This document shows positions 3,601 through 57,217 of a stretch of DNA of 64,000 bases, piece after piece. Source of the DNA: Bacteroidales bacterium (lineage in GTDB: Bacteria > Bacteroidota > Bacteroidia > Bacteroidales > WCHB1-69); the NCBI GenBank assembly GCA_045130275.1, contig JBGUPL010000013.1, positions 3,900-67,899 of the forward strand. The letters run 5' to 3'. How positions within the stretch are numbered: position 1 is the stretch's first letter; each line of letters begins with the position of its first letter. The notes beneath the pieces were generated by a model. The model had not been told where the DNA came from. It was given only the letters and a program-made list of their open reading frames with translations, and did not search any database. The position numbers and the translations under genes are program-made.

Positions 3601-6600
3601 ACGCCATCTCGGGATGATGGATGAAAGCCTCAGCCGCAGTGCAAACCGACTGCGCCAGACTTTGCATCAGCTCGTGGCTGTAGCGACCATTGTCATATTC
3701 GACCACCACACCCGGCACGCCTTCTTTCTCTTGAATGTAGAAAGCGATGCGGAACTTCGGTATATTCAGCTCAAGAGACTCTATTTCAAGCTTTTGACCG
3801 TTGATTAGATATTGGTCTATCACTCCCATCTGATAGGCGAACATGATTTCGGCCGACAAGTCGTAATCGGCAGCGATCTGCGCGAAAGGATACTTTTCGT
3901 GAGTCAAAGTCTCGTCAAAGTGCTGGCTGGTCTCATTCAGGAAGTCCATCACCTTTTGATTGCCAATCTGGGCACTCAAGGCCAACGTGTTGACGAACAT
4001 GCCCGTAGTATTGCTTATGCGCAGATCGGAACGGCCGTTGCTGATGGTGGTGATGCAAATCTGCTCGTTGTTGGTGAAACGTGAGAGCGCATAGAAAACC
4101 GCCGCCAGGGTAAGGTGCGCAGGCGAGAGGTTGTTCTTCTTGCAGAATTCCTCCATCGCGTCGAAGTCCATCTTGCAGAAGACTTCGCTGACAGTACCTT
4201 GCTCCAACGGATTGGTCAAGTCGGCTGACACTTCAGTGGCCCCTTCCACATTGCCCAAACGCTGGTTGAAGAACTCCTTAGCCTCGATGTAACTCGACGT
4301 GCTTTCAGCCGCTTTCTCATCGACAACAAAACCGGCATAGCTGATGGCTTCAGCCTCGATTTCCTTGCCGTTCATCAAGTCGCACAACTGGTTCAGGAAC
4401 AGGTCGAGGGAACCGCCGTCGAAAATCAAGTGATGCACATCCGCCAAGAGGCAAACGTTTCGCTCGGTGGTGACGATTTCCATTCGGTACAACGGTCCTT
4501 GTCTCAGGTTGAAAGGTCTTACGAACTCCACCTTGTATTTCTCCAATTCCGCCTCGCTCAACTGACTCTTTGTAAGGGCAAGAGGTTGAGTTGTGTCAAC
4601 AATTTGCACGATTTCGCCAGCTTCGCTGTCAAAATGCACAAAAAACTGCGGGTGTGCCTTGATGAGGGTCTCGATGGACTTTTCAAGCAACTGCACATCG
4701 GTGTCTTTGGGGAGACGAATAAGGGTTGGGATGTTGTACACCGTGGAGGTGGGCTGCTTCATGCAATCGACATATACGCCCATCTGCGCGTAGGACAACG
4801 GAACATTATTTAGTTGAGAGTTAAGAGTTGAGAGTTGAGAGTTGTCGGTATTTGAAACAGTTTGGTTGGTGGCAGGAGCATTGAGGAGTTTGTTAAGAAT
4901 CTCATTCTCAATTGTTTGAATATTTCCTGCCTTAACTAAGGATTTGGAATCCACGGTGATACCGTATTTTTTGTTCAGCTGCACGGCCAGTTTGATGGCG
5001 GAGATGGAGGTAAGTCCAACGTAGCCGAGCACGGTGGTCACGCCAAAGTCTTTGGTGCCCACGATGCCCGCCACGATTTCGTGCAGTTCCTCTTCGAGGA
5101 TGTTCATCGGCACATGGCTTTCCTCCACGGTTTCCGCCTTTTTCTCGGGTCTCGGCAGGGCCTTCTTGTTGACCTTCTGATTCTGATTGAGCGGAATGCG
5201 GTCGATTTGCATCGTCACAGCAGGCACCATGTAAGGCGGTTTCTCATCCATGATGAAGTTGTTAAGGGCTTCGATGTCAATCTTCTCATCAGCAACAATA
5301 TAAGCTGCAATGAACTTGCCGCCGCCCTCTTCGTCAAAGGCTTGCACGGTGACATCCTTGATGCCTGGATACTGGCGGATGATAGCCTCTACTTCCGTGA
5401 GCTCGATGCGGAAACCGCGAACCTTCACCTGTGCGTCGCGACGGCCCACAAACTGGACGTTTCCATCAGGCAGGTAACGCACGATGTCGCCGGTGCGGTA
5501 GCAGCGACCCCAAGGGGTCTCCACGAAAGCCTCGGCAGTCTTCTCCGGACGATTCAGATAGCCTCGTCCCACTTGAGGGCCATTGACCCATAGCTCGCCG
5601 GCAGCGCCCACAGGTAACCTATGCCCGCATGCGTCCATAATGTACAGATGCATATTCTCCACAGCCTTTCCTATGGGGATATTCTGCAATTTCTCCTTGA
5701 CAGCAAATGCCGTCACATAACAGATACTCTCTGAAGGACCATAGCCGTTCAGGAACAAGTAGGGAGGAGGCGTGACATCCGCCAGTTTCTCACCGCCGGT
5801 GATAAAGGCCTTCAAGGAGTGATTGGCGATATCGTTGACAAATGAGCGGGCCACCTGTGTCGTCATGAACGTATGGGTGATGCCGTTCTGCTCAAAATAG
5901 TCGTTAAGCGCGAGGAGGTCAAGACGTATCTCCTCAGGAATGATATAGACGGTAGCACCCACTATGAGCGGCGGCCATAACTCAAGCAAACAAGCATCAA
6001 AACCGAAACTAGCATACGCTCCTATGTGACTATCCGCTTCTACATGCAGGGCATGTCGGTGCATGTGACTGAACGCCACCATATTCCGATGTTCGAGTTG
6101 ACATCCCTTGGGTACGCCTGTAGAGCCACTGGTGTAGATTAGCGTAAAGAGGCTCTCGGGCTTGGGTCCATCAAATGCATTGGATTCCTTCAGGTTCTTA
6201 ATGTCTTTCGTAAGCAGCACTTCACCCTTGTATTCATCCAAGATGGAACAAAGTTCCTCGTCGGCAATCAACAGTTTGGAAGCCGTATCCTGCATCATGA
6301 AGTTCAGGCGCTCCTTCGGATAGGTGGGGTCCAACGGCTGATAAGCACATCCTGCCTTCAGCACACCCAGCGAGGCAATGGCCATCCATTCTGAACGGGC
6401 TATCAGAATGGCCACCACATCCTCAAGTCCCAATCCTTTCGATGCAATATAACTTGCAATGCGGTCACTGATTTCATCCACCTCGGCGTATGTAAACCGC
6501 TTGTCCTTGAAGACCACAGCCGTCTTGTCGGGCGTTGCTTTGGCTTGACGGCGGAACAGCGATACGATGGTCTGCGTGTCGTCGTATGGATTATCGGTCT

Positions 6601-7873
6601 CGTTGAAACTGTCAAGCAAGTCGCACTGGCTCTTGGTGCAGATGTCAATGTCGCGCAGGAGGGTTTGGCTTAGAAAGCCCTCCAGAACCGCCTCATAACT
6701 CTCCATAAATTGGTCAATCAGCGTCTCGGAATATTCGTTGGAGCTGTATTCCGCTCTGATATGATATTTTTTGCCGACATAGAAAGCCATCAAATAAAGC
6801 GACACTCCCTCGTTGTGCTTGCGGAGCTGTATGGCCTCCATCGGTTTGCCCATCAGTTCGGTATAATCAAGTAAGAGGCCGTGCCATGCAAAGGTGGTGT
6901 TGATTTGCAGATTAAGGTCCGTCATCATGTCGGTATAGGAATAGAGATCGTGCTTGCGGCAGCCGATCATCTGTTCCTCGCCGGCTTTCAGGAAGTCTAG
7001 CACGGTGGTCTCTTCCGTGAACTTGGCGTAAACGGGCAACGTCTTCACAGTCATGCCAACGGAATGTTGGAATTTCCGTTCGGTGCGGCCGTTGAAGACC
7101 GTGGCGAACAGCGATTCATGCTCGTTGTTGTACTTGGCCAGCAGGAAGGAGTAGGCCGACGTGAAGAAAGTGCTTTTTTTGATGCCGTTGGTCTTGCAGA
7201 AAGCATCCACCCGATCCATGTCGGTGTCGAGAATGCGGAGTTTATTGGCGTCCGTGTGTTCGGGGATCTCCAAATCGGGCATAAGCTGGGTGAACGTGTC
7301 GCCGCAATCGAAGTTTTGGGCATACCACTGTTTGCCCTCTTCGAAGGCAGGTGTTTTGCGCATCTCAACTTCAGCAAGGGCAAGTTCCTGCATCGACATC
7401 TCCTCGGGGGCAAGCTCGACACCATTGTAAGCTTTTTCCACATCGTAAGTGATGATGTTGTACGAGGTGCCGTCGCTGATGATATGGTGCATGTCGAAGA
7501 GCCAATAAACATGTTCCTCGTCGCGCATCACTTTCGTATGAAACAGTCTGCCGCCAATGAGTTTGTAAGGCACGATGAATTTTTGCTTCTCGGCCTCGAT
7601 GTCCGTGAACGGCTCGACAGCAAGGCTGAAATCATCCCTTTCCTTAGTGTCAACGGATTGGACAGGTTCGCCTTCTTCATTCACCTCAATCCGGGTGAAA
7701 AAAACGGGATGCGCCTTTATCGTCGCCTCAATGGCGCGGCACAAACGGTCGGCATCGAGGCTGCCGTCAAAGACAAAAAGGAACGGGAGATTATAGAAGA
7801 CTTCATTCTCGTGCTCCATGCACTCGGCATAAATACCCAATTGCGATTGGGATAAAGGGGAAGTGTTTTTCAT
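605..7873 (-). CDS. Bimodular non-ribosomal peptide synthetase, C-A-T-C-A-T-R (terminal thioester reductase)
   Basis: 2422-aa ORF. C motifs: MHHIISDG (nt 7469-7489) and DVHHLIFDGGS. A motifs occur twice: LIYTSGSTGVPKG / MLYTSGSTGTPKG, GYGPSE / GYGPTE, YRTGD, GRxDxQVKIRGFRIEL and PLNQNQKVNxKALP. Carrier-protein serines sit in YVGLTSISA and FFDLGGTSLMV. The R domain has LLTGATGYLG (Rossmann) and YLHSK (YxxxK). Approximate domain coordinates in nt: C1 6580-7873, A1 5150-6575, T1 4888-5101, C2 3520-4800, A2 2068-3515, T2 1814-2047, R 608-1702. Confidence 0.95.
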   Translation of the reverse strand: MKNTSPLSQSQLGIYAECMEHENEVFYNLPFLFVFDGSLDADRLCRAIEATIKAHPVFFTRIEVNEEGEPVQSVDTKERDDFSLAVEPFTDIEAEKQKFIVPYKLIGGRLFHTKVMRDEEHVYWLFDMHHIISDGTSYNIITYDVEKAYNGVELAPEEMSMQELALAEVEMRKTPAFEEGKQWYAQNFDCGDTFTQLMPDLEIPEHTDANKLRILDTDMDRVDAFCKTNGIKKSTFFTSAYSFLLAKYNNEHESLFATVFNGRTERKFQHSVGMTVKTLPVYAKFTEETTVLDFLKAGEEQMIGCRKHDLYSYTDMMTDLNLQINTTFAWHGLLLDYTELMGKPMEAIQLRKHNEGVSLYLMAFYVGKKYHIRAEYSSNEYSETLIDQFMESYEAVLEGFLSQTLLRDIDICTKSQCDLLDSFNETDNPYDDTQTIVSLFRRQAKATPDKTAVVFKDKRFTYAEVDEISDRIASYIASKGLGLEDVVAILIARSEWMAIASLGVLKAGCAYQPLDPTYPKERLNFMMQDTASKLLIADEELCSILDEYKGEVLLTKDIKNLKESNAFDGPKPESLFTLIYTSGSTGVPKGCQLEHRNMVAFSHMHRHALHVEADSHIGAYASFGFDACLLELWPPLIVGATVYIIPEEIRLDLLALNDYFEQNGITHTFMTTQVARSFVNDIANHSLKAFITGGEKLADVTPPPYLFLNGYGPSESICYVTAFAVKEKLQNIPIGKAVENMHLYIMDACGHRLPVGAAGELWVNGPQVGRGYLNRPEKTAEAFVETPWGRCYRTGDIVRYLPDGNVQFVGRRDAQVKVRGFRIELTEVEAIIRQYPGIKDVTVQAFDEEGGGKFIAAYIVADEKIDIEALNNFIMDEKPPYMVPAVTMQIDRIPLNQNQKVNKKALPRPEKKAETVEESHVPMNILEEELHEIVAGIVGTKDFGVTTVLGYVGLTSISAIKLAVQLNKKYGITVDSKSLVKAGNIQTIENEILNKLLNAPATNQTVSNTDNSQLSTLNSQLNNVPLSYAQMGVYVDCMKQPTSTVYNIPTLIRLPKDTDVQLLEKSIETLIKAHPQFFVHFDSEAGEIVQIVDTTQPLALTKSQLSEAELEKYKVEFVRPFNLRQGPLYRMEIVTTERNVCLLADVHHLIFDGGSLDLFLNQLCDLMNGKEIEAEAISYAGFVVDEKAAESTSSYIEAKEFFNQRLGNVEGATEVSADLTNPLEQGTVSEVFCKMDFDAMEEFCKKNNLSPAHLTLAAVFYALSRFTNNEQICITTISNGRSDLRISNTTGMFVNTLALSAQIGNQKVMDFLNETSQHFDETLTHEKYPFAQIAADYDLSAEIMFAYQMGVIDQYLINGQKLEIESLELNIPKFRIAFYIQEKEGVPGVVVEYDNGRYSHELMQSLAQSVCTAAEAFIHHPEMALQQVSLLDAGQTALLDSFNQTDVPYDDTQTIVSLFRHQVEQTPDNLAVVYHDHKYTYREVDEISERIAGYIVAQGLKNEDIVSVLIPRCEWMAIVSLGVLKAGCAYQPLDPSYPAERLNFMMQDANAKLLIADEELRPIVDEYHGIVLLTKDIDKLPAVVPVKADITPSSLFIMLYTSGSTGTPKGCQLEHGNIVAFCHWYQRHYGLTAADKVAAYASYGFDACMMDLYPALTCGACVHIIGEDIRLNLPDLNNYFNTQGITHSFITTQVGYQFVTNVENHSLRCFAVGGEKLSALNPPTNYKMYNGYGPTECTIFTTNYWVKDYELDIPIGKPLDNLRLYIVDKQFNRLPPGAAGELWVSGPQVSRGYLNRPEKNAETYLKNPFSDDPKHARVYRTGDIVRYLPDGNIQFVGRKDGQVKIRGFRIELKEVEAVIRQFPGIKDATVQAFDYENGGKFIAAYIVSDQQVDIKALNDFIGERKPPYMIPASTMQIDRIPLNQNQKVNRKALPTPLMQASDREYVAPANDTEALFCRIFSEILAMDKIGANDSFFDLGGTSLMVTRVIIEADKAGMHVAYGDVFANATPRKLAALVSGNTVVATDDDDITKFDYSGINNLLSNNILDSFRKGECQSLGNVLLTGATGYLGIHILQELIQSDAENIYCLVRDKDMEAAEHRLKTLLFYYFESTYDELFGNRLHILLGDVTNDLTNLVQVKIDTVFNCAAVVKHFSEGTEIEDVNVGGAQRCVDLCLKTGARLVHISTYSTSGLNVNDTMAPDYVFTEQRLFDGQYLGNQYLHSKFLAERIVLQSIVDKGLSAKVIRVGNLAARTSDGEFQINFSTNSFMGRIKVFNMLGCFPYSLYENKVEFSPIDEVAHTIILLSSTPKDCCLFHSYNSHTQFLGDVLSGFNKLGTDIRLVEDEEYNSTVESAGNDPQKAKTLSSLLAYQDMAHGMKVSEVPISNLYTTQVLYRLGFKWSPTTWDYVDRMLSAISGLGFFD
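4813..4844. repeat. Heptanucleotide tandem array (GTTGAGA/GTTAAGA, about 4.5 units) inside the NRPS T1-C2 linker
   Basis: Direct reading gives gttgaga gttaaga gttgaga gttgaga gttg. On the coding strand this encodes NSQLSTLNSQLN. Confidence 0.9.
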
Positions 7874-7923: not shown

Positions 7924-7950
7924 CAGCCAATAGCCAACGACCAATAGCTA
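7924..7950. repeat. Short heptamer array (GCCAATA/GCCAACG/ACCAATA) in the porin-NRPS spacer
   Basis: Three to four imperfect 7-nt units overlapping the porin stop codon. This is the reverse complement of the GCTATTG family seen at 41374-41444. Confidence 0.6.
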
Positions 7951-9291
7951 TTGTTTTTTCTTGTCATTCCACGGCAAGGTGAATATCGTCGGGTTGACAG
8001 TCAACATCACCCACCCCCAGTGCAATCGGCGGGTTTGGGAGACCTGTTGGAGAATCTCCATCGTCTCTGTGCCTTGCATGTAGGAATATCCTGCCGACAC
8101 CCTGACAAATTTCGCGAACGAATAGCCCACATTGATCACGAATTCATGACCCAACGATTTTTTCAGTTTGTTAAGATCGGCTGAAATGGCGTAGTAATGA
8201 TAGGCAGCGTCGATTCTCAGGCCTCTGACGGGATTGACGACGCCTCCGGCATAGAGGTTCTGCAAGCCAGGGGAGAAATTGTTCAAATAATTGTCCATAT
8301 AGAAGAAATCCATGGCACCATAGAATTCGTGGTGCGAGCCGAACAACGGGCAGAATGCCCGCGCCTTTTCGTGGAATATGAGGCCGAATCCTCCGTTAAT
8401 CCTGACGGGGAATTGATCACCGCTCAGGTAATCATATCCGGCAAAGAGGGTGTATATTTTGCTGGGCGTAACCTGAAGCTTCGCACTTCCCATGAAAGCG
8501 TCCAGCTTCATTGCGTTTTCCTCTTTTCCCATCTGATAATAGAAAGAGCCTTCCAATGTCACAATGCTGGGTTTCAATTTCACGTAGGCGCCGAACAGTT
8601 GCTGAAAGAAGGTTGTATCCGGAAAATTGGAGTTCTTGCTCTGAACCCCGATATTCATGCCAAGCAGGGACATCCCGAACAGTGACTTCGGCGTCTCGTA
8701 GTGATACCAAAGAGTCTGCATGGTCTTGTAAGGCTGGATTCCGCCGGCATAGTAAGTGGTACCTTGTGAAATGTTTTCCGAATTCTGGTTGTAGGCGAGG
8801 AGGATGTGCAGTTTGTGGCCATGACCTTCGTAGCCTAATTTCAGCGCATCGTGGGTGGGCGCAGTCATCGTCCAGTCATCGTAACCCAGGATACGCTCGT
8901 CATCGTATTCCAACGTCTGACGGCCGAGCTTTGCGAAAAGCCCTGTCTTTGTGTGTCTCATCGAGAGCCAACCCTCGGAAAGACTCAGGTTGCCACCGGC
9001 TTGTCCCCAAACCCCGGAAAACTGAGGCGAAAGCCTCAATTCGAACCAGTCGGCCCGTTTGTATCCGAGGTTAAGCCTGTACTGTCCCATGATGAAGTGG
9101 GACATCCGCTCCTTCTCGTTTTCTTCCTCGTCATCCGGATTGAAACCTCCGACACGGATTTCCCCACGGGTGTTGATTTTGGCGTCAATGGTGAATTCGT
9201 TGTCCGCCTCTTGCGCCTGCAGATTCAGGGCTGTCATCATTATCAAGGCTAAGAAGCACCAACGGAAGATTGAGTTAAGGTTTGTCTGCAT
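7948..9291 (-). CDS. Secreted outer-membrane beta-barrel (porin-like) protein; family not assignable by eye
   Basis: 447-aa ORF with the signal peptide MQTNLNSIFRWCFLALIMMTALNLQA|Q. The rest of the sequence has the alternating aromatic/Gly-rich strand pattern typical of OM barrels. It lies 74 nt upstream of the NRPS. Confidence 0.65.
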   Translation of the reverse strand: MQTNLNSIFRWCFLALIMMTALNLQAQEADNEFTIDAKINTRGEIRVGGFNPDDEEENEKERMSHFIMGQYRLNLGYKRADWFELRLSPQFSGVWGQAGGNLSLSEGWLSMRHTKTGLFAKLGRQTLEYDDERILGYDDWTMTAPTHDALKLGYEGHGHKLHILLAYNQNSENISQGTTYYAGGIQPYKTMQTLWYHYETPKSLFGMSLLGMNIGVQSKNSNFPDTTFFQQLFGAYVKLKPSIVTLEGSFYYQMGKEENAMKLDAFMGSAKLQVTPSKIYTLFAGYDYLSGDQFPVRINGGFGLIFHEKARAFCPLFGSHHEFYGAMDFFYMDNYLNNFSPGLQNLYAGGVVNPVRGLRIDAAYHYYAISADLNKLKKSLGHEFVINVGYSFAKFVRVSAGYSYMQGTETMEILQQVSQTRRLHWGWVMLTVNPTIFTLPWNDKKKQ

Positions 9292-9897: not shown

Positions 9898-10203
9898 TTA
9901 GTCAATCACCTCAAAAATATCGTCCAACTTGGTCATCTTGAAGACCTGCATCACATCGGGGCAGACGTTCCTCAGGTACATTTTTCCACCTTTAGCGGAG
10001 ACTTCTTTTCTAATTTTCAAAAAGATACGCAAACCGGAGCTGCTGATGAACGGCATCTTTCCACAGTCGAGAATGATGTTGCGATCCGCATGTTGCAGCA
10101 ACGGATCAATGGTGTCCGCTATTTGTTGTGCGGCTACAGTGTCCAACCGTCCGTCAAAAACGGCAGTAGTGGTGTTTCCCTCTTCTGTGATATTAATATT
10201 CAT
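9898..10203 (-). CDS. STAS-domain protein (anti-sigma-factor antagonist, RsbV/SpoIIAA-like)
   Basis: 101 aa. It has the typical STAS layout with the phosphorylatable-serine motif in PFISSSGLRIF. Its stop lies 2 nt from the PPTase start codon. Confidence 0.8.
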   Translation of the reverse strand: MNINITEEGNTTTAVFDGRLDTVAAQQIADTIDPLLQHADRNIILDCGKMPFISSSGLRIFLKIRKEVSAKGGKMYLRNVCPDVMQVFKMTKLDDIFEVID

Positions 10204-10313: not shown

Positions 10314-10376
10314 CTATTGCCTGTTGCCTATTGCCTGTTGCCTATTGCCTATTGCCTGTTGCCTGTTGCCTGTTGC
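10314..10376. repeat. Heptamer tandem array, 9 units of CTATTGC/CTGTTGC
   Basis: Nine contiguous 7-nt units counted directly. The array covers the last 21 codons and the stop of the sensor gene. Confidence 0.95.
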
Positions 10377-12434
10377 CTGTATCTTCATCCTCAATACATT
10401 CTGCCCGTTTTCGTGCGCATATTCCACCTGATCCATAATCGTCCTGATAAGATGGATACCTAAGCCACCGATCTGCCGTTCCTCTAATGGAACGTCGAGG
10501 TTGACCTCTTTTTTTTGCAAAGGATTAAACGGCGCGCCTTCGTCAATGAGGGTGGCACAAATCTGCCCGTCCATAACCTCCAGGGAAAGCTCCACGGTGC
10601 CCTTTTCACCTTCAGGATAAGCATACATGATGACATTGGTCGCGGCCTCCTCCAGCGCGAGGTTCAACTGCGGCAACAACGACATGTCAAGATTCTCTTG
10701 CTTGAAATAATCGTTCAGGAAAGGTTCCAACTTGTAGAGTTCCTCGATATTGTTGCTCATGCTCAGGGTATTATTGCCGCCTTTCGTGAAACGGACGGCC
10801 AGCATGGTGAGGTCGTCGCTCTGCTCGGCTTCCCCCACAAAGGTCTGTACCGCCAGCCGCATCTTTTCGACCTTCTCTTGAGCTGTCGCTCTGCAGTACT
10901 CCGTTGCAATTTCCAACGCTCTCGACTCCCCGAAAAGTTCCTTTTGGGTGTTCTCGGCTTCGGTCAAGCCGTCGGTGTAGAGGAACAGGGTGTCTCCGGG
11001 CAAAAGGGCCACCTCGCAAGACGTGTATTCAGCATCAGCATCAACCCCAAGGATAAGAGAAGGCGCGCTGTCCAAAAACTTCACCTTCCCGTCACGGATG
11101 ACAATCGGCGGATTATGCCCGGCATTGCAATAACGGATCATGCCTGTGGATAAATCCATGACACCTATGAACATTGTGATGAACATAATGTCGGGGTTGT
11201 TGTCGCTGATTGAGGCGTTGAGCGCCTGCATGATGTGTTCGGGGCGGCTGTCGCGGGCGGACAGGGTGCGGAACAGACTATGGGCGATGGCCATCAACAA
11301 TGCCGCCGGCACCCCTTTGCCGGAGACATCCCCGATGCAGAACAACAGCTGGTTGTCATGCACATAATAGTCGTACAAATCGCCGCCGACAAACTTGGCT
11401 GGGATCTGCAACCCCTTGATATCGATGGTTTTGATGGATTTCGTCAACGTTTCGGACGGCAACATCGCCTGCTGGATGTTTCTGGCGATGGAAAGCTCAT
11501 CCTCGATATGCTGTTCCTTCAAACGCACCTCGTTAAATTTCCACAAATTCTGCACCGAACGGTACGCAATGAAGAAGACCGTCAAAACGCCTGTGAAGGC
11601 CAAAATAGAGAAAAACAGCGTTGCCATCCTTAACCGATGGTACATGTCGGCGTTGGAAATCGTAATGGTAAGGACCATGTCCTTGCCATCAATAGCCTCT
11701 GAGAAGACATGATATCTGCCTTTCGTCTTGGGCACTGACGGTGGCGCCACCAGTACAGAACCGTCTGTGGTGACTAATGTACAGAAACTATGAGGATAGA
11801 GCTTTATGTTGCTGACAATACTGGCAAGCGTGTCGAGGGTGACATCCGTGCAGATAACGCCTACCGTTTCGCCTGTACTGTCGCTGATCGGGAGACAGTA
11901 GGAAATCATGTATGCCATCCCGCCGGCATTGTCGTAGTAGGGAGCACTCCAAAAGCCTTTCTCCGACGCCAGTCCTTTCTTGAACCAGTCCATTTGGAGA
12001 TAGTCATGTTCCTCACTCCCCAACTGGGTGACGAACAAGGTGTCGAGATTCTTCCGATGGCCGGCATAGGTTTCATACCATCGACCCTCATTGGGATAGT
12101 AGTTTTCTTTGAAGGCGACGCCTGCACCCATAATGTGTGAACTGGACTCCACCGTGTGATATGCAATGTCGTACATTGCTTCAGGGTCGTCAATCATGTA
12201 TTCGGCCATCGGCCCAATGGAGTTCACAACGGTTTCTATCTTACCCAAACATCTGTTAATCGAAGCTTCAGCGTTCTTCAAGGTCATTTCCACCCGTTTT
12301 TCAACTGACCTGACTTCCTGTTTCCTAATATAAAAGTAGTACTTGATTCCAACCAAAATCAAGGCCAGAACGGCAATGAGAATCTTCAGGAGTTCTTTCT
12401 TTGCGAATTGGTATTTGTCAATAGGATAGGACAT
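10314..12434 (-). CDS. Membrane sensor combining a periplasmic Cache-like domain, a PP2C (SpoIIE/RsbU-type) phosphatase and a C-terminal HATPase (RsbW/SpoIIAB-type kinase)
   Basis: 706 aa. There are two TM segments (about aa 17-37 and 272-292) around an extracytoplasmic domain of roughly 230 aa. PP2C motifs: GGDLYDY, GDVSGKGVPAALLMA (nt 11293-11334) and LYTDGLTEA...DDLTMLAV. Kinase motifs: LEEAATNVIMYAY and GGLGIHLIRTIMD. The C-terminal tail QATGNRQQAIGNRQQAIGNRQ is encoded by the repeat array. Confidence 0.85.
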   Translation of the reverse strand: MSYPIDKYQFAKKELLKILIAVLALILVGIKYYFYIRKQEVRSVEKRVEMTLKNAEASINRCLGKIETVVNSIGPMAEYMIDDPEAMYDIAYHTVESSSHIMGAGVAFKENYYPNEGRWYETYAGHRKNLDTLFVTQLGSEEHDYLQMDWFKKGLASEKGFWSAPYYDNAGGMAYMISYCLPISDSTGETVGVICTDVTLDTLASIVSNIKLYPHSFCTLVTTDGSVLVAPPSVPKTKGRYHVFSEAIDGKDMVLTITISNADMYHRLRMATLFFSILAFTGVLTVFFIAYRSVQNLWKFNEVRLKEQHIEDELSIARNIQQAMLPSETLTKSIKTIDIKGLQIPAKFVGGDLYDYYVHDNQLLFCIGDVSGKGVPAALLMAIAHSLFRTLSARDSRPEHIMQALNASISDNNPDIMFITMFIGVMDLSTGMIRYCNAGHNPPIVIRDGKVKFLDSAPSLILGVDADAEYTSCEVALLPGDTLFLYTDGLTEAENTQKELFGESRALEIATEYCRATAQEKVEKMRLAVQTFVGEAEQSDDLTMLAVRFTKGGNNTLSMSNNIEELYKLEPFLNDYFKQENLDMSLLPQLNLALEEAATNVIMYAYPEGEKGTVELSLEVMDGQICATLIDEGAPFNPLQKKEVNLDVPLEERQIGGLGIHLIRTIMDQVEYAHENGQNVLRMKIQATGNRQQAIGNRQQAIGNRQ

Positions 12435-19007: not shown

Positions 19008-19019
19008 TGTCTTTTTAAA

Positions 19020-19068
19020 GGTTAATGGTTAAAGGTTAATGGTTAAAGGTTAATGGTTAAAGGTTATA
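19020..19068. repeat. Heptamer array (GGTTAAT/GGTTAAA alternating, 7 units) filling the ftsI-murE spacer
   Basis: Units counted directly, with one further degenerate unit extending to 19075. Confidence 0.95.
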
Positions 19069-19081
19069 GTTTAAGTCAGGG

Positions 19082-35073: not shown

Positions 35074-35091
35074 TATACCCGTTTTGAGCGG

Positions 35092-40675: not shown

Positions 40676-40687
40676 ATGCGACCCGTA

Positions 40688-47708: not shown

Positions 47709-47780
47709 TTCTTTGTTGTATAAAACCTATTTAAAAACCATTGGGGCTGCCCGTTCTACAGAATATTAACGGACAACCCC

Positions 47781-47808
47781 AATTATCAATTATCAATTAT
47801 CAACTACT
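47781..47808. repeat. Heptamer array (AATTATC x3 plus one degenerate unit)
   Basis: Read directly; it abuts the stop of the 993-aa gene. Confidence 0.8.
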
Positions 47809-50789
47809 TACTTAACCAGCGTCACCGAACCCGTGTACTCCTTATCGTCACCGTTGAGGTTGAGCAGGCGGATTATGTACACATAGACTCCTTCGGGACA
47901 CATTTGGCCGTTCTTGTTACGACCGTCCCAATAATCGTAAGGATTGCGGGTGGAATAGATCAACATACCGCTCCGGTCGAAGATCTGCATGGAATAGTTG
48001 TCGGGATCCACTCCCTCGCCACTCGGCGCGAACGTCTCGTTCACTCCGTCACCATCAGGTGTGAAGGCATTGGGAATATAGAAGAAATACGGCACTGTGA
48101 CGGACACCCTCCTCTTGACGGAATCCACGCAATTGAGTGAATCGGTCGCTGTCAGGGTAATCGTGTAGTAACCCGAATGCGTATAGTCGTGGGTGACTTG
48201 CTCGATATTTTCCACTTGGTTGACATTGGAGAAGATGTCGCCGAAGTCCCACAACAGATGATACTCATCCTGAGACAACGGGGTCGTGCACGTAACAGTT
48301 CCTACGCCGTTCTCGACATAGATTTCCGTGGGATCCGGTATAAACGTCGGGGTGGGAAGTGGCAGCACCGTAACGGTAAAGGTATCGATGACCGTGCAGT
48401 TGCCCTCCATAGTGGCCGACACCGTGTAAAGGGTGGTCACCTGCGGTGAAACCGTGATGGTGGGACCACTTTGGCCGTTGCTCCATTGGAATTGATTGGA
48501 GGTGGCGTGCGTGGCAACCAGTGTGGCGTTCTCGCCCATACAAATCGAATCCGTACCAGAGATTTCCGGAAGCTCCAAGTCCGTGATCTTCACCCGGACC
48601 GTGTCTTTGTTGTCGCAACTATTGTCGAAAGTGACGGTAAGGGTGTAAGTAGTACTCTCCAACGGGTTCACCGTTACTGTCGCCGTCGTGTCTCCGGTGC
48701 TCCACAAATACGATTCGGGCAAAATGTCCGGATAACCGGAATAGGTTGCCGACAGGGTGGCCGGGTCGCCCGGACAGATAAAGTTGTTGCCCGTGGAGGA
48801 GGAGAGGTGCACCTCCGGCACCTGCACAAGGATGGTGGTGGTGTCCATCAGCGTGAAGGACTGCCCTGAGGCATTCGTGAACTGATAAACGGAAATGTAT
48901 TTCGTGACCGGTGCATTTGGTTTACTGACAGTGATCATCTGCTCAGTACTATAGGGCGTACCCAACGTATCGTTCACGAACCAGCGCAACGTACCTTGCT
49001 CATCCAGCGGGGTGATGGGTGTGAAACGCCATGCCTCGTCATTGGCACTCCACGCGTTAAAAGAGCCGACATGCGTAGTTGGATTGTACGTGACCCCGCG
49101 ACCCGGCGCAAAAAGAATCTGAGATGATGTTTTGTTTTGCAGGCCTATGATACCTTGGTTTCCGCTATTTGTCGAAGCACAACATGCCCGATGTTTCACA
49201 TATACGTCTATAATGTTTGTTCCCTCGTAAATCACCATCTGATAAGTGTTGTAATTGCTCGGGGAATTGTGATTACCGAAAAGGCCCACATTCAAATAGT
49301 TGAACACAAATGCACGACATGGGGGGCTACCAAGCACACCTACTCGAACAGCACCTGGGGTATTAAAGCAGTAGCTGTTGTAATAATTACAGTCAATATC
49401 CTCATATACACCATAAATACAATTGTTGTAATTAAAAGGCACCGTCATACTGCCTCCTCCTATCGTCTGGTTATTGGCAATATTCACATCATAGGGTGGC
49501 GATTGAGGAGGAACCCCGTATGAATAACCCAGATCAATTCCAGGATTGCTATGCCTGTATGTCATGGAAATCAACCCGTTGGTGCCAGGATACACTGTAT
49601 TGTAATCTTGCCCGAAAAAGGTGAAAGTAAAAGGCAAATTGACTCCCGCCAACCATTGGTCGTCATCACTGGCATTAATGCTTTGACCCTGATTGAATTC
49701 GAAAATGTGCGATTCAAAGGGGATTTGTTTTACGGAGTAGTCGCTGGTATATTGTCCAGTAGCAATGACACCGGCTTTGAGCAGGATAATGGGAATATCA
49801 CAATTCCACAAAATGGTCTTCGTCTCAGCATCAAACATGTCGGCATATAAAGAGTCAATATCGTTGGTCACCGACGGACAAGCGCTTCCGTCAGGGCTGT
49901 CAAACAACTCAGGCACGCAGGAAATCTGCGCTTTCCATCCGGATTTCTGGAGATCGCCGGCCTTGCCGCAATAGACGAAAGTGAGTGCGCTGGAAGTGGA
50001 AAAAAGTGTCGGGGGTTTGTTTTGAGTGGAATTATCAAGTGTGGATGTGCAAAACTGCCCGATGAGGCGCTTGTCTTGCGCCCAATAGTGCCCGTCATAA
50101 ATCTTCATCACCCCATTCACCGAAAACTCCGTGAACTCGCATTTCACATGCGATCCGACCGGAGAGGTGAAACTGGCAAAAACCGTCTCGTTGGCATTTT
50201 GATCCACCGTGGCTATATTGCCATTGGGACCGCCAGAATCATAAAACCATGTATTACAAGTGGTCACATCCGGTGAGTTGCCGTCTGTGGGCCAGTTGTA
50301 GCTCGATGGAGTAAGGGAAAAGGCATACACCTGTGCCCGCCATCCGGCCTGCAACCCCGGAACATGCGCATCGTTCGAATGGAACACAAATGTCAGCATA
50401 CGATCGGCGGCTGTAATCTCACCCGGGCTCTGCACCAGCGTATAGGCTCCTATAAGCGGAGAAGAGGTATTGGGGCCGTTGAAAATGTAGAGCGTGTCGC
50501 CATTGTCCATCGCAAATTCTTCAAAAGCGATATACAACACCGTGCCCGACATATTGGTTCGCAGGGTCATTGTGTCTCTGAGATTCTCTGCAAAATAGCC
50601 GTTCGGATCCTGGTTTGCACCCATTTGGCCTGGGACACCACCGGGGTCGTAGAAATTTCTGGGATAGTCATCGATATCGGCCACCAACGGGGCGGATCCC
50701 ATAATAATATCTTGGCCTTCAGCATTTTGCAAAAAATAAAAGCCGCTTACGAGCAAGATTAGCGTGAATAATATTTTCCTCATTGTCAC
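47808..50789 (-). CDS. Large secreted protein with two CUB-like N-terminal modules, Ig/PKD-like repeats and a T9SS type B C-terminal sorting domain
   Basis: 993 aa with a signal peptide. FYDPGG... and WFYDSGGPNG... segments have CUB-like spacing. The C-terminus NAFTPDGDGVNETF...MQIFDRSGMLIY...WDGRN...GVYVYII is a type B CTD. Confidence 0.7.
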   Translation of the reverse strand: MTMRKILFTLILLVSGFYFLQNAEGQDIIMGSAPLVADIDDYPRNFYDPGGVPGQMGANQDPNGYFAENLRDTMTLRTNMSGTVLYIAFEEFAMDNGDTLYIFNGPNTSSPLIGAYTLVQSPGEITAADRMLTFVFHSNDAHVPGLQAGWRAQVYAFSLTPSSYNWPTDGNSPDVTTCNTWFYDSGGPNGNIATVDQNANETVFASFTSPVGSHVKCEFTEFSVNGVMKIYDGHYWAQDKRLIGQFCTSTLDNSTQNKPPTLFSTSSALTFVYCGKAGDLQKSGWKAQISCVPELFDSPDGSACPSVTNDIDSLYADMFDAETKTILWNCDIPIILLKAGVIATGQYTSDYSVKQIPFESHIFEFNQGQSINASDDDQWLAGVNLPFTFTFFGQDYNTVYPGTNGLISMTYRHSNPGIDLGYSYGVPPQSPPYDVNIANNQTIGGGSMTVPFNYNNCIYGVYEDIDCNYYNSYCFNTPGAVRVGVLGSPPCRAFVFNYLNVGLFGNHNSPSNYNTYQMVIYEGTNIIDVYVKHRACCASTNSGNQGIIGLQNKTSSQILFAPGRGVTYNPTTHVGSFNAWSANDEAWRFTPITPLDEQGTLRWFVNDTLGTPYSTEQMITVSKPNAPVTKYISVYQFTNASGQSFTLMDTTTILVQVPEVHLSSSTGNNFICPGDPATLSATYSGYPDILPESYLWSTGDTTATVTVNPLESTTYTLTVTFDNSCDNKDTVRVKITDLELPEISGTDSICMGENATLVATHATSNQFQWSNGQSGPTITVSPQVTTLYTVSATMEGNCTVIDTFTVTVLPLPTPTFIPDPTEIYVENGVGTVTCTTPLSQDEYHLLWDFGDIFSNVNQVENIEQVTHDYTHSGYYTITLTATDSLNCVDSVKRRVSVTVPYFFYIPNAFTPDGDGVNETFAPSGEGVDPDNYSMQIFDRSGMLIYSTRNPYDYWDGRNKNGQMCPEGVYVYIIRLLNLNGDDKEYTGSVTLVK

Positions 50790-50928: not shown

Positions 50929-51001
50929 CGGGGTGTGGCGCAGTTGGTAGCGCGCTACGTTCGGGACGTAGAGGCCGGAAGTTCGAGTCTTCTCACCCCG
51001 A
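50929..51001 (+). tRNA. tRNA-Pro (anticodon CGG)
   Basis: The cloverleaf was folded by hand: acceptor CGGGGTG/CACCCCG, D arm GCGC-AGTTGGTA-GCGC, anticodon arm CTACG-TTCGGGA-CGTAG, T arm GGAAG-TTCGAGT-CTTCT. No CCA is encoded. Confidence 0.9.
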
Positions 51002-53283: not shown

Positions 53284-53374
53284 TAATCCAAATCACTATT
53301 CACCAATCACTAATCACTATTCACTGCTCACTGATCACTGCTCACTGATCACTAGTCACTAATCACCAATCGCC
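53284..53374. repeat. Heptamer array (NNTCACT family, 12-13 units) filling the spacer before uvrC
   Basis: Units aatcact attcacc aatcact aatcact attcact gctcact gatcact gctcact gatcact agtcact aatcacc aatcgcc. Confidence 0.95.
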
Positions 53375-53383: not shown

Positions 53384-55165
53384 TTGAAAGAGACTCCAAA
53401 CAATATCAAACTGATACTGAGATCTTTGCCGGAGAAGCCTGGTGTTTACCGCTTCTACGATGACAAGGGCACGGTGATTTATGTGGGCAAGGCAAAGCGG
53501 CTGAAGCGGCGGGTTTCCTCCTACTTCAACAAAGAGCATGACTCTGCCAAGGTGCGGATGCTGGTCACGAAGATCCGCGACATCCAGACCGTAGTGGTGG
53601 ACACGGAGTGGGAGGCTTTGTTGCTGGAAAACAGCATGATCAAGGAATTCAAGCCGAAATACAACATCATGCTGAAAGACGACAAAACCTATCCATGGAT
53701 TGCCGTCACGAAAGAGCCGTTTGCAAGGATCTTCCCCACCCGCAGGCCCGACCCCGCCACCATGCATCTTTTCGGGCCCTATTCTTCTGTGAAACAGATG
53801 AATATCCTGCTCGACCTCATCTACGGGCTATTTCCGATACGGAATTGCAAGATATTGAAGAACAATGACCGTCCGTGCATGCAGTACCAAATCAAAAAAT
53901 GCGCTGCTCCCTGCTGCGGACTCATCACTGCCGAAGAATACAGGCAGAATATCGACCAAGCAACGCAAATCATCAAAGGGAACCGCAAAGAGGTGATCCG
54001 GCAGTTGCGTGAGGAGATGATGGGCTATGCCGACGAATGGAAATTCGAGCAAGCCGCCGAAGTGAAGCGCAGAATCGATGCTTTGGAGACCTTCATTGGC
54101 AAATCCGTCGTGGTGAACCCCTCGCTCACCGACATGGATGTCTTCGGGATGGAGGAAGACGACAACTGCGTGTACGTCAGTTTTTTACGTGTTTTGGACG
54201 GAGCGGTGGTGCAGGCGCAGACCCTCGAAATCGACAACCGTTTGGAGACCACCCGCGAAGATGCGCTTTGGACAGCCATCCTGGAGATCAGGGAACGTTT
54301 GGGAAGTCTCTCCCCCACCCTGCTGGTGCCCTTCACGCCGGAAATCGCCCCCGACGACTGGGACCTGCAAGTGCCGCAACGTGGCGACAAGCGCAAACTG
54401 TTGGAGTTGGCCGTCCGCAACGCGCACTTCTATATGCTGGAAAAGAAAAAACGGCAAGACCTCGCGGATCCCGAACGACGTAACATCCGGGTACTGCAGG
54501 CGCTCCAAGACGCTTTAGGCATGAAGACTTTGCCGCGACGTATCGAATGCTTCGACAACTCCAACACCCAAGGCGAGGAGCCCGTGGCCGCGATGAGTTG
54601 CTTCATCGACGGCAAGCCCGCCAAAAGCGAATACCGGCACTTCAACATCAAGACTGTGGTCGGTGCCGACGACTTCGCCTCCATGGAAGAGGTCATCTAC
54701 CGCCGCTACCACCGGTTGCTGGAGGAGGAAAAGCCGTTGCCAGACCTGGTAGTCATCGACGGCGGCAAAGGGCAGCTCCACGCCGCCTGGAACGCCATCC
54801 AAGCCCTCCACATCGAAGACCGCCTTATGATGGTGGGCATCGCCAAACGGTTGGAGGACATCTACAAGGTGGGCGACGACCTGCCCGTCTATATCGACAA
54901 ACGCTCCGAGGCGCAGAAACTGCTGCAGCACGTGCGCGACGAGGTGCACCGCTTCGGCATTACCCATCACCGCAAACGCCGCAGCAAAACCAGCATCGCC
55001 TCCATCTTAGATGACGCGCCCGGCATAGGTAAAACACTCAAGACCAGACTGTTGAAAGAATTCAAGAGCGTATCGAAAATCAAAGCCGCCAACGAGACCG
55101 AACTCGCCGCAGTCATCGGTCCGAAGAAAGCCGCGGACCTCAAGGCATATCTGTTAAAGGTTTAG
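53384..55165 (+). CDS. uvrC: Excinuclease ABC subunit C
   Basis: 593 aa with a GIY-YIG N-terminus (PGVYRFYD...VIYVGKAKRLKRRVSSY), a UVR motif, an Endo V-like domain and a C-terminal HhH. The only in-frame start in the right place is TTG 53384. Confidence 0.9.
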   Translation: MKETPNNIKLILRSLPEKPGVYRFYDDKGTVIYVGKAKRLKRRVSSYFNKEHDSAKVRMLVTKIRDIQTVVVDTEWEALLLENSMIKEFKPKYNIMLKDDKTYPWIAVTKEPFARIFPTRRPDPATMHLFGPYSSVKQMNILLDLIYGLFPIRNCKILKNNDRPCMQYQIKKCAAPCCGLITAEEYRQNIDQATQIIKGNRKEVIRQLREEMMGYADEWKFEQAAEVKRRIDALETFIGKSVVVNPSLTDMDVFGMEEDDNCVYVSFLRVLDGAVVQAQTLEIDNRLETTREDALWTAILEIRERLGSLSPTLLVPFTPEIAPDDWDLQVPQRGDKRKLLELAVRNAHFYMLEKKKRQDLADPERRNIRVLQALQDALGMKTLPRRIECFDNSNTQGEEPVAAMSCFIDGKPAKSEYRHFNIKTVVGADDFASMEEVIYRRYHRLLEEEKPLPDLVVIDGGKGQLHAAWNAIQALHIEDRLMMVGIAKRLEDIYKVGDDLPVYIDKRSEAQKLLQHVRDEVHRFGITHHRKRRSKTSIASILDDAPGIGKTLKTRLLKEFKSVSKIKAANETELAAVIGPKKAADLKAYLLKV

Positions 55166-55201
55166 GGTTTAGGGTTTAGGGTTTAGAGTTTAGAGTTTAA
55201 G
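55159..55201. repeat. Heptamer array (GGTTTAG x4, AGTTTAG, AGTTTAA) containing the uvrC stop
   Basis: Counted directly. Confidence 0.95.
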
Positions 55202-55216: not shown

Positions 55217-56950
55217 ATGATTTATATGAACCGTTTTTCCAAAAGGGCTGTAAGCCCGAAACACGTCAACCCGACGCGCCGCGCTGGGATCATTACCCTC
55301 TTCGCCATCCTCATCGCCGTCACGGCCATGGCGCAAAACCAAAAGCTCACCTATCCCGAAACCTACATCGAGACCGTGGTGGACGCCGCCACGCTGAGCT
55401 CGCTGTCGCACGACTTTTCCGTGGACCACGTGAGCCGCAACAACGACGGCACTTTCAACACACGCATCTACCTGTCGTACAGGGATTTCGACAGTTTTCT
55501 ATCGAAAAACATTCCCTTCACGACCGTACCGCAGACCCGTGCCTTTGTGCAAATGGCGCAGAACTATGCGCAGCTGACCAGCAGTTGGAACCGCTACCCG
55601 ACCTACAGCACTTATCTTGCCGCGATGGACACCTTCCGCACGCGCTACCCACAGCTGTGCGAAATCGACACCATCCTGGACAACACCCCTGATCACCACA
55701 AGATCCTGGTGGCGCACATCAGCAACAACCTCAGCGACCGCGAGGGCAAGCCCTCCGTCTTCTACACCTCCACTATCCACGGCGACGAGGTGCTCGGGTA
55801 CTATATGATGCTGAGACTTATCGACTATCTTCTAACAAATTACAACTCAAATACATACGTCACTGATTTAGTCAACAGCATCGACATTTGGATCTGTCCG
55901 TTGCACAACCCTGACGGCACCTACTACACCTCTGACAACCAAATCAACAGTTCACCGGTCTCCATTCGATCGAACCTCCACGGCGTGGACCTGAACCGGT
56001 CGTTCCCGCAGGTGGGGCAAACTCCAGCCAAGGAAAACGAGGACGAACCTGAGGTGCAAGCGATGATGCAGTTCATGCAGGCTCACGACTTCACCTTGGC
56101 GGCCAACTTCCACGGGGGTGCAGAGGTATTCAACTACCCATGGGACACTTGGACCAGCTGGCAGCACAGCCACGCTGACGCCGCTTGGTGGGCATTTGTC
56201 GGCCACCGGTTCGCCGACACGTGCCAGTACTACAACTCCAACTACATGAACGAGGAAAACGACGGCATCACGGAGGGCGGCGACTGGTACGTCATCACCG
56301 GCTCCATGCAGGACTACCACAACTGGTATCTTGGCACACGCCACGTAACCATCGAAGTCGGCGACAACAAAGTGCAATCCACCAACTCCTTGCCGAATTA
56401 CTGGGGCTACATCAAGCAAGCGCTGCTGAATTTCATCGCCGAGGCGGACAACGGTATCCACGGCAGGGTCACCGACTCGCTAACCGGCGAACCGTTGGAG
56501 GCGCTCGTTTATATCGCCAATCACGACCTCGATCACTCCTACGTGGAGTCCTCCCTGCCCTATGGCGACTATCACCGTCCCATCAAGGCCGGTCAGTACG
56601 CTGTCACCTACTCGGCGGAGGGTTACCTACCCAAAACCATCGTCACCACCATTGCCGACGGCCAAAAATTAGTGCAGAATGTGCAACTGACCAAGAGTGT
56701 CGGCATTGACAGCTACGAAAACCGCGTGACCGTTTATCCGAACCCTGCAAAGGAGATTGTCAATGTACAATGTACAATGAACAATGTACAAAGCGTTGAG
56801 GTGTTCGATGTATATGGTAAATTGTTGCAAATTGTACCGGTCACCTCCGAAATCACACCGATCAACATCTCCGGCCTGGCCGACGGCATGTATTTCGTTC
56901 GCGTGGCCACTGAGGCAGGCACAGTGACCAAGACTTTCGTGAAGAAATAG
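55217..56950 (+). CDS. M14-family zinc carboxypeptidase with a T9SS type A C-terminal sorting domain
   Basis: 577 aa with signal peptide ...AVTAMA|Q, zinc motif STIHGDE, ...ANFHGGAEV, and the C-terminal VTVYPNPAKEIVNV...GMYFVRV...KTFVKK. Confidence 0.8.
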   Translation: MIYMNRFSKRAVSPKHVNPTRRAGIITLFAILIAVTAMAQNQKLTYPETYIETVVDAATLSSLSHDFSVDHVSRNNDGTFNTRIYLSYRDFDSFLSKNIPFTTVPQTRAFVQMAQNYAQLTSSWNRYPTYSTYLAAMDTFRTRYPQLCEIDTILDNTPDHHKILVAHISNNLSDREGKPSVFYTSTIHGDEVLGYYMMLRLIDYLLTNYNSNTYVTDLVNSIDIWICPLHNPDGTYYTSDNQINSSPVSIRSNLHGVDLNRSFPQVGQTPAKENEDEPEVQAMMQFMQAHDFTLAANFHGGAEVFNYPWDTWTSWQHSHADAAWWAFVGHRFADTCQYYNSNYMNEENDGITEGGDWYVITGSMQDYHNWYLGTRHVTIEVGDNKVQSTNSLPNYWGYIKQALLNFIAEADNGIHGRVTDSLTGEPLEALVYIANHDLDHSYVESSLPYGDYHRPIKAGQYAVTYSAEGYLPKTIVTTIADGQKLVQNVQLTKSVGIDSYENRVTVYPNPAKEIVNVQCTMNNVQSVEVFDVYGKLLQIVPVTSEITPINISGLADGMYFVRVATEAGTVTKTFVKK

Positions 56951-56990
56951 GGGGTTAGAAGGTTAGAGGGTTAGAAGGTTAGTAGTTAAT
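56951..56990. repeat. Octamer array (GGTTAGAA/GGTTAGAG, 4 units, degenerating to 57009); reverse complement of the 27619-27699 family
   Basis: GGTTAG recurs at 8-nt spacing, starting one nucleotide after the carboxypeptidase stop. Confidence 0.9.
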
Positions 56991-57217
56991 GGGTTGTTGG
57001 TTAAGGGGGTTGAATTGAACCCGATTGGACTTGCAGTCAGTATCCGCTACTATTATTCACAATAAAAAAAGCAATAATATAGAAGTTGACCGGCTGTCTG
57101 TTTTGCAGTTAATACAGATTAGCACTTGTTATAGTTGAAAACATGGGCATTCCCGTTTCTTATAATGAGCTGACGCACAATATTTTCTTTGTCCGCACAG
57201 CCGGACCCCAAAAAGTT

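Follow-up and report, generated by a model that had tools for sequence, protein, structure and literature searches.

Introduction

Long tandem repeats with units of 5–11 nt are found sporadically among prokaryotes, heptanucleotides being the commonest, and polymerase slippage has been proposed as their source (Mrazek, Guo and Shah 2007, as summarised in PMC4679880). We describe here arrays of this kind in a 64,000-nucleotide stretch of genome from a Bacteroidales bacterium (GenBank assembly GCA_045130275.1, contig JBGUPL010000013.1, positions 3,900 to 67,899; the whole stretch is referred to as the window), in which tandem arrays, mostly of 7- or 8-nt units, fill many gene junctions. An earlier reading of the same sequence, called below the original prediction, had suggested that these arrays may be selected as unstructured intercistronic insulators or leaders with stop codons in all frames, had named a lineage-specific neutral microsatellite expansion as the fallback, and knew of no description of such a system. 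By our analysis the fallback is the best fit: we consider it fairly probable that the arrays belong to the heptanucleotide class of simple sequence repeats, are hypermutable and have proliferated in one uncultured rumen Bacteroidales clade, and that no function is needed to account for them.

The kind itself had been described (MacGregor 2015, PMC4679880; Rehm et al. 2015, PMC4692102; Mrazek et al. 2007, through the summary in PMC4679880), and what we find is that kind in a new lineage. All the marks of the heptanucleotide class were observed: arrays beyond chance, 7 nt as the commonest period, periods other than multiples of 3 mostly outside coding DNA, and variation by whole units. As in the class of Mrazek and co-workers, to the extent that PMC4679880 summarises it, there are also many units per genome, a scattered occurrence among lineages and a call for slippage as the cause. 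The differences from that summarised class are the lineage, the seeding of arrays from a gene's last codon and stop codon, and the presence of inverted array pairs. Seeding by a gene's own stop codon and co-varying hairpins of inverted arrays may be new, neither having been found described in the literature examined.

The intergenic TAACTGA heptamers of marine Beggiatoaceae, Cyanobacteria and five Bacteroidetes (MacGregor 2015, PMC4679880) lie just upstream of start codons, carry stops in all forward frames, are not predicted to form RNA structure, differ between strains by indels of 7 nt and were proposed to act in translation. Our arrays are similar to them in being intergenic heptamers, often a few nucleotides upstream of starts and beside essential genes, with stops in all frames, a lack of predicted RNA structure and 7-nt indels. 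Yet the TAACTGA repeats have one dominant unit and a proposed horizontal spread, whereas the arrays described here have dozens of locus-specific units, occur at all junction types and appear to be of local origin. About one-third of our arrays have the TAACTGA-like placement (intergenic, forward and near-upstream of a start); many of the rest adjoin a stop or are found in convergent gaps. A search for two copies of TAACTGA with at most one mismatch gave 0 matches, and membership in that family was rejected for want of a matching unit.

Heptamers of the GGGNATC type in Xanthomonas and Nostoc lie mostly 0–50 bp after stop codons on the coding strand, some overlapping the stop (Rehm et al. 2015, PMC4692102). 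They share with our arrays a genome-wide spread, an excess in non-coding DNA, a variable copy number and the lack of a tie to surface genes, but are G-rich, quadruplex-forming and preferentially of four copies, whereas ours are A/T-rich, diverse and without G-tracts. Heptamer arrays can affect expression, because deletion of heptamer repeats near recF/recO in Nostoc changed the output of a reporter (bioRxiv 10.1101/2022.06.06.494920). The contiguous repeats of Nostoc and the STRR sequences of cyanobacteria are, like ours, tandem heptamers near starts or promoters, some of which overlap a start codon; unlike ours, they have a few fixed consensus units, and they belong to another phylum. The STRR units of heterocystous cyanobacteria, reportedly described by Mazel et al. 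in 1990, are said to be CCCCAGT, TTGGTCA and CAACAGT; none of these units is among the arrays of the window, the host of which is a rumen Bacteroidales bearing a type IX secretion system (T9SS).

Materials and methods

Tandem arrays were called with Tandem Repeats Finder (TRF). Those of the window were counted at a score of at least 40, with 50 dinucleotide-preserving shuffles as control. Gene identities were checked against NCBIfam and Pfam. The comparison set consisted of 45 loci, each of at most 20 kb, around the nuclease gene that lies downstream of purL in the window (62–84% protein identity), taken from cattle, yak, goat, sheep or reindeer rumen assemblies and cited below by L numbers. 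Relatives of the nuclease protein were found only in metagenome-assembled genomes (MAGs) of uncultured rumen Bacteroidales. Genome and metagenome collections yielded no copy of the window's own contig; the closest match to the window, L017, is one 1.65 kb contig of a near-identical strain. Distribution statistics refer to 27 non-redundant sequences (the window plus relatives) that total 477 kb; MAG assemblies may collapse or truncate arrays.

Results

We counted 20 arrays in the window, as compared with a mean of 1.0 and a maximum of 3 in the shuffled sequences. Eleven of the 20 had period 7, whereas all 50 shuffles together yielded one array of that period. Arrays were present at 13 of the 42 junctions in the window. 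TRF recovered essentially all of the arrays of the original prediction; two, at 7924–7950 (score below 30, 3.9 imperfect copies) and 33779–33794 (2.3 copies, score 32), were marginal.

Over the 477 kb we found 179 arrays, which cover 12.3% of the intergenic but 0.39% of the coding sequence; the enrichment at gene boundaries relative to gene interiors is upheld. Intergenic periods showed a sharp peak at 7 (66 arrays), followed by 8 (17), 6 (8) and 10 (7), with none at 9 or 5; the coding arrays had mostly periods of 12, 15, 18 or 21. This bears out the predicted bias of 7 and 8 over 6 and 9. It had also been proposed that the period is coprime to 3; as a rule this was rejected, period 5 being absent and 10–11 rare. 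The pattern is a peak at 7 which, together with the absence of period 5, matches the general prokaryotic bias toward heptanucleotides, as that is summarised in PMC4679880 from Mrazek et al. (2007). Every relative carried arrays, at 1–8 per 10 kb, with period 7 dominant. By comparison, four outgroup loci (L046–L049; nuclease identity 34–51%, 70 kb) contained no array of period 6–8, and two of them, L048 and L049, kept the purL–nuclease synteny with spacers of 5–6 nt. Because the outgroup loci are free of such arrays and all of the relatives bear arrays, the proliferation is clade-specific and derived. An assembly artefact was considered and rejected, because the same arrays were seen in independent assemblies from different studies.

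The arrays proved to be hypervariable. Between the window and L017, three of four arrays differed, by +42, -28 and +7 nt; all of the changes were within arrays and in whole units, and the flanking coding DNA was ~98–99% identical by eye. L017 has six more units than the window in the array upstream of the nuclease gene (40687–40735) and four fewer in the array at 41374–41444; the array at 41479–41537 also differs in length. Comparison of L001 with L018 (98.3% identical over 19 kb) gave 14 indels in arrays and 3 elsewhere, with 8 of 14 arrays resized, and in close pairs generally (95–98.5% identical) about 20 of 45 arrays were unequal in length. The arrays are hot spots for indels and gain or lose whole units, which is what slippage would give, and in this respect the original prediction, that they are generated and resized by slippage-type events, is supported.

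About half of the arrays start at -19 to +7 nt of a stop codon. At the junctions of all species, the stop-proximal arrays begin with the upstream gene's own last codon and stop. The gene purL encodes 1238 aa in 25 of 27 relatives, so the position of its stop is fixed, while the last two residues vary (KG, RR, RA, RQ, GR and others), and the array unit is the gene's last 7–10 nt, changing with the terminal codons. In the window, purL ends in A GGT TAA and is followed by (AGGTTAA)n. The corresponding pairs are GGT TAA and (GGTTAGAA)n in L001, TC GGT TAA and (TCGGTTAA)n in L027, GCT TAG GG and (GCTTAGGG)n in L021 (the GCT TAG class, with unit (GCTTAGGR)n), CGA TGA and (CGATGAAA)n in L009–L013, CAA TAG G and (CAATAGG)n in L032, and A CGT TAG and (ACGTGAG)n in L002. 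L005 and L028 have only a two-copy proto-repeat at the end of purL. L003, L024 and L034 share terminal codons with array-bearing species, yet are array-free, with a purL–nuclease spacing of -4 to 19 nt. Since these three loci and the outgroups L048 and L049 have no spacer array at this junction, the arrays are dispensable there.

For 60 stop-adjacent arrays, we asked how often the last codon and stop (6 bases) recur one period downstream: the match was exact in 17, and in 24 five or more of the six bases agreed. Gene ends without arrays, used as a control, showed the last sense codon again in 6.5% and the stop codon again in 2.6%. Gene ends would be the most permissive seeding sites, because a duplication that starts in the last codon and includes the stop spares the protein. 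The start codon is itself part of some start-proximal arrays, such as the (GCGATGAAAA)n that precedes recQ in L009, L025 and L036. We also observed that (AAAAGCGATG)n arrays upstream of recQ (L009, 10684–10765; L025, 1005–1032; and in L036, downstream of its nuclease gene) carry an ATG in each unit with an overlapping TGA (GATGA), which on paper makes a chain of 7-codon mini-ORFs (open reading frames) that leads into the real start.

Two compositional features of the arrays had been taken as possible signs of selection. The first, that most units lack or nearly lack one base, is true but uninformative: 53 of 76 heptamer units (70%) are without one base, as compared with 62% of ordinary intergenic 7-mers (p = 0.10). 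The more specific claim of G-depletion before starts does not hold in general. Among arrays at most 30 nt upstream of starts, G was lower than C in 21 and higher in 18, which is not significant, and the G-free start-proximal examples are largely orthologues of the nuclease-upstream array; a G-depleted leader rule was accordingly rejected on the pooled data. Of 58 arrays that begin at most 10 nt downstream of a stop, 50 are poor in C on the sense strand. This too was rejected as a sign of function, since we calculate that ~11% C, the value observed, is to be expected of any 7-mer with TAA, TAG or TGA in it. The second feature, richness in stops in all frames, stands as an observation, but its reading as a sign of selection is not supported. 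The stop-richness is mostly explained by the fact that units copy the upstream gene's last codon and stop, and any stop-containing unit with a period of 7 or 8 gives stops in all frames.

Some adjacent arrays are inverted with respect to each other. At the purL–nuclease junction of the window (plus strand), the array (AGGTTAA)x4.9 at 40642–40675, the first unit of which is purL's last 7 nt, and the array (ACCRTTA)x7 at 40687–40735, which abuts the nuclease ATG, are approximate reverse complements and form the 5' and 3' arms of a bulged hairpin (40647–40720; -29.7 kcal/mol, z -3.8 to -4.7). An inverted-repeat scan misses this hairpin owing to the bulges, whereas folding detects it. Hairpins with other units are present at the same junction in L001, L019, L026, L027, L029, L030, L040 and L004, with z-scores, where computed, of -4.5 to -7.7; their cores fall into the classes GGTTAA:TTAACC, GCTTA:TAAGC and AGACTT:AAGTCT, and the class follows the terminal codon and stop. 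L009 and L015 have an ordinary GC-rich hairpin there. Array hairpins at other junctions were seen in L008 (-62.8 kcal/mol) and L032 (-45.4 kcal/mol). Adjacent arrays of the same period were reverse complements, with at most one mismatch, in 5 of 22 pairs, for which we estimate a chance level of ~1%.

Possibly, then, the inverted subset consists of functional RNA or DNA hairpins (tunable terminators, attenuators, RNase III sites or mRNA 3' stabilisers), the arms of which are kept complementary by selection. The strength of the purL–nuclease hairpins across three unit classes, the excess of reverse-complementary pairs, the further hairpins in L008 and L032 and the ordinary hairpin that takes their place in L009 and L015 are all in its favour. 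We nevertheless regard it as unlikely. The arms are unequal in length, and between L001 and L019 the change is one-sided; quasi-palindrome template switching could keep the complementarity mechanically; the hairpin is absent from L003, L024, L034 and the outgroups; and most arrays of the window have no partner. An intrinsic (rho-independent) terminator, which would have a G+C-rich stem and then a U-tract, was rejected as an identity for the inverted-array hairpin: its stem is bulged and rich in A and U, and what comes after it is more array units and the ATG, without a run of U. We give a somewhat smaller chance to the more specific proposal that stop-seeded microsatellites and their inverted partners make long hairpins whose arms change unit and period in concert and which, if selected, would act as length-tunable terminator, attenuator or processing elements. 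If true, inverted-array hairpins would determine the degree of coupling between neighbouring genes in bacteria without Shine-Dalgarno-guided initiation.

A separate palindromic element of 33–38 nt (..CCCCACACAAGCGACGAAGGAGCGCAGTGTGGGG..), in 1–3 tandem copies, was noted in array junctions of some relatives (L002, 5396–5469; L007, 858–937; L008, 9842–9983; also L020, L023, L032 and L033) and is absent from the window. It resembles a REP-like (repetitive extragenic palindromic) hairpin repeat.

The remaining arrays of the window are described here in the order of their genes. The non-ribosomal peptide synthetase (NRPS) gene (605–7873, minus strand) contains (AGTTGAG)x4.7 at 4812–4844 (minus strand), read as ..NSQLSTLNSQL..; as predicted, it lies in an inter-module linker, at residues 1009–1020, directly before the second condensation domain. 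The weak array at 7924–7950 (minus strand), with ~3.9 imperfect copies of CAGCCAA/TAGCCAA, overlaps the stop of the gene at 7948–9291; its unit family is that of the array at 41374–41444 on the opposite strand. The SpoIIE/RsbW-like gene (10314–12434, minus strand) receives its stop codon from (CAGGCAA/TAGGCAA)x9 at 10314–10380 (minus strand). We noted that, in translation, this array encodes a 21-residue C-terminal tail (QATGNRQ QAIGNRQ QAIGNRQ) on the SpoIIE phosphatase/RsbW-like kinase, a tail that unit changes would alter, and that the next gene downstream (9898–10203) encodes a STAS-domain protein of the anti-sigma antagonist type. Between the stop of the ftsI-type penicillin-binding protein gene (19082–21406, minus strand) and the start of murE (17535–19007, minus strand), the spacer is filled by (TTAACCW)x8.6 (mRNA sense; 19014–19074, minus strand), which is G-free in sense. 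Adjoining this long array is a two-copy CCCTGAC repeat (19075–19087; ftsI last codon and stop, in minus-strand sense), which looks like a proto-array caught at the seeding stage.

On the plus strand, (TAACCTTC)x9.6, of period 8, at 27619–27699 ends 4 nt before the ATG of the TIGR03915/DUF4130 gene (27704–28489, plus strand) and is G-free and unpaired in the fold; the 1.4 kb upstream of this array (26190–27618) has a single weak ORF (26680–27435) with no NCBIfam or Pfam family match. At the minus-strand pair sbcC (30363–33758) and sbcD (33886–35094), (TGAAGAA/TGTAGAA)x4.3 at 30345–30374 (minus strand) holds the sbcC stop, with GAA TGA found again one and two periods downstream, and the marginal CTTAAAC x2.3 at 33779–33794 (minus strand) is 20 nt upstream of the sbcC start. 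Downstream of purL (36936–40652, plus strand) and of the hairpin arrays, the PF02577 bifunctional nuclease gene (40735–41373, plus strand) is followed by two plus-strand arrays that are also present in L001: (TTGGCTG/TTAGCTA)x9.9 at 41374–41444, which begins at the nuclease stop, and (GACTTA)x9.3, of period 6, at 41479–41537, which ends 7 nt before the ATG of recQ (41545–43440, plus strand). At a convergent junction with an adjacent GC-rich hairpin, (ATAATTG)x3.4 at 47780–47808 (minus strand) abuts the stop of the gene at 47808–50789. This gene, said earlier to encode a porin with its stop inside the array, encodes a T9SS protein, and its stop shares one base with the array end. The other genes said to have their stops within arrays (purL, uvrC, sbcC and the SpoIIE/RsbW-like gene, then called a sensor) do so.

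The uvrC gene (53384–55165, plus strand) has arrays on both sides. Upstream, (AATCACT and variants)x11.6 at 53284–53374 (plus strand) runs from the stop of an OstA/LptD-like gene to 9 nt before the uvrC TTG and is G-poor. Downstream, (GGTTTAG)x5.9 at 55159–55201 (plus strand) has the uvrC last codon and stop (GTT TAG) in its first unit, contains no C and stops 15 nt short of the next ATG. This array can also be written (TTTAGGG)n, with four perfect units, and is identical to the plant-type telomere repeat, probably by coincidence; AAACCCT-type units, related to it, are present in L027 and L034. The gene at 55217–56950, which encodes a protein with a T9SS tail, contains an array that had been overlooked, (CAATGTA)x4.4 at 56761–56791 (plus strand), and at its stop begins (GGTTAGAA)x3.8, of period 8, at 56948–56990 (plus strand), which no start codon follows because the gap is convergent. 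The gaps between array end and start codon agree with those given earlier: 0 nt for the nuclease gene, 4 for the TIGR03915/DUF4130 gene, 7 for recQ, 9 for uvrC and 12 for murE.

Several other proteins of the window have T9SS tails, and these put the organism in Bacteroidota. A search of Rfam at gathering thresholds for known RNA families gave two tRNA genes (50929–51001, plus strand; 61751–61824, minus strand) and nothing else in the window. The 620-nt convergent gap after the gene at 55217–56950 holds a 33-nt inverted repeat (57226–57258 and 57373–57405) with 82% complementarity and arms 114 nt apart, perhaps a structured RNA or a small mobile element. A 12-nt tandem repeat, TTGCTGCAAATT x3.8 at 62972–63034, 42 nt upstream of the ORF at 63077–63391, is also palindromic (26-nt arms); it is of another class than the 7–8 nt arrays, perhaps an element of a promoter or an operator.

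The neighbours of the arrays bear on whether these are contingency loci, in which gain and loss of units would switch the flanking genes (phase variation). Like the contingency loci of host-adapted pathogens, the arrays are hypermutable in whole units by what appears to be slippage; some of them adjoin genes for T9SS surface proteins, and the tail of one protein is array-encoded. Classical switches, however, have units of 1–5 nt in the frames or promoter spacers of surface genes, whereas here units of 7–8 nt are spread through intergenic DNA beside genes that are mostly housekeeping (purL, murE, ftsI, uvrC, recQ and sbcCD). Reading frames are left untouched, the position of the arrays being either past the first stop or ahead of the start. 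On the evidence of reading frames, unit lengths and flanking genes, assignment to the contingency loci was rejected, and phase variation is the least likely of the explanations that we weighed.

Discussion

We read the course of events as follows. The data show that many arrays arise when a stretch of 7–8 nt (sometimes 6 or 10) at a gene boundary is duplicated in tandem, most often the gene's last codon and stop with 1–2 further bases. Whole units are then gained and lost, as by replication slippage. Arrays would persist only where they are harmless, that is, after the first stop and before the A-rich 5–12 nt that precede a start, and on rare occasions in frame-tolerant linkers or tails of proteins. 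The features that look designed (richness in stops, stops in all frames, shortage of one base, lack of C in sense, failure to fold) would be by-products of such a history. As side effects, a stop–start junction once 0–6 nt long is stretched to 50–300 nt, and inverted pairs make a long hairpin at some junctions; any effects on expression would be secondary and strain-variable.

Several points weigh against this account and are gathered here. All of the loci surround one 20 kb gene neighbourhood, and many of the arrays are orthologous and therefore not independent. Genes in the relatives were found with a purpose-made caller that scores codon usage and is approximate (the nuclease gene of L027, for example, was missed). 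Units recur at unrelated junctions (GGTTAA/TTAACC, TAGGCAA, TTGGCTG and GACTTA), and such a vocabulary may point to a preference for certain sequences, to spread or to selection. In most species the junction upstream of the nuclease gene has an array while the unit changes, and inverted array pairs keep their complementarity while their units change between species. The minimum free energy (MFE) of array leaders (-50..+15) averages -3.0 kcal/mol, and that of ordinary leaders with the same G+C -7.4 kcal/mol (p = 1e-7). Finally, units at co-directional junctions carry a stop in the sense strand in 82% of cases, against 44% in the antisense strand and a baseline of 35% (discordant pairs 31 vs 6, p = 4e-5), and even start-proximal arrays that do not touch a stop have sense stops in 81% as against 52%, so that origin at a stop codon is not fully the explanation of the start-proximal excess. 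Some of the stop excess may reflect a filter, in that a hypermutable array at a gene end is harmless only if every frame ends quickly.

The last of these points are also what speaks for the original prediction, by which the arrays are selected as unstructured all-frame-stop insulators or leaders for Shine-Dalgarno-independent initiation, perhaps by way of termination and re-initiation. Leaders with arrays do fold weakly (in the window, 0.0 kcal/mol for murE and -5.7 kcal/mol for uvrC), the start-proximal arrays are enriched in sense stops, and the nuclease-upstream junction is array-bearing in most species. Also, arrays end 5–12 nt before the ATG and leave an A-rich stretch, which fits such a role because low structure and upstream A residues matter in Bacteroidetes initiation (PMC6847099). 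We consider this explanation decidedly improbable on the following grounds. Array leaders would be unstructured by construction, since direct repeats of skewed composition cannot self-fold, and the claim of unstructured leaders, which is otherwise upheld, fails for the nuclease leader, which lies inside a strong hairpin. Arrays are present at 19 of 41 convergent junctions (46%), 63 of 221 co-directional (29%) and 12 of 46 divergent ones (26%), so that the convergent junctions are at least as often occupied as the co-directional (Fisher p = 0.03). Copy number swings 2-fold between strains, the same genes stand at 0–6 nt junctions in close relatives and outgroups, G-depletion is not general, many start-proximal cases are orthologues of one junction, and the stops are accounted for by origin.

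The recurring vocabulary could alternatively mean that the arrays serve as rows of binding sites, recognised by a sequence-specific protein or RNA that regulates post-transcriptionally, as was proposed for the TAACTGA repeats. TAACC-like cores upstream of starts are consistent with this, and the proposals in PMC4679880 and the Nostoc recF/recO preprint are precedents. Nevertheless, there are 58 distinct units among 111 arrays, units at a single junction vary by species and follow the local terminal codons, arrays occur in all junction types and on both strands, and TAACTGA repeats themselves are lacking; we therefore hold binding sites to be very unlikely.

Heptanucleotide-class repeats proliferating in one clade are thus the explanation that we favour, and some of its consequences are practical. 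The arrays can be used as strain-level length markers and are likely break points when rumen genomes are assembled from short reads. Small errors of annotation result from them, among these protein tails encoded by repeats and starts set at the wrong place, and an array like the plant-telomere-like (TTTAGGG)n could trip screens for contamination or telomeres. For the biology of these bacteria, the arrays are a clean natural example of where a compact genome tolerates tandem duplications of 7–8 bases. They also indicate that stop-rich, base-skewed and unstructured spacers can arise without selection for those properties, which is a caution against adaptive readings of the similar repeats in Beggiatoaceae and cyanobacteria.

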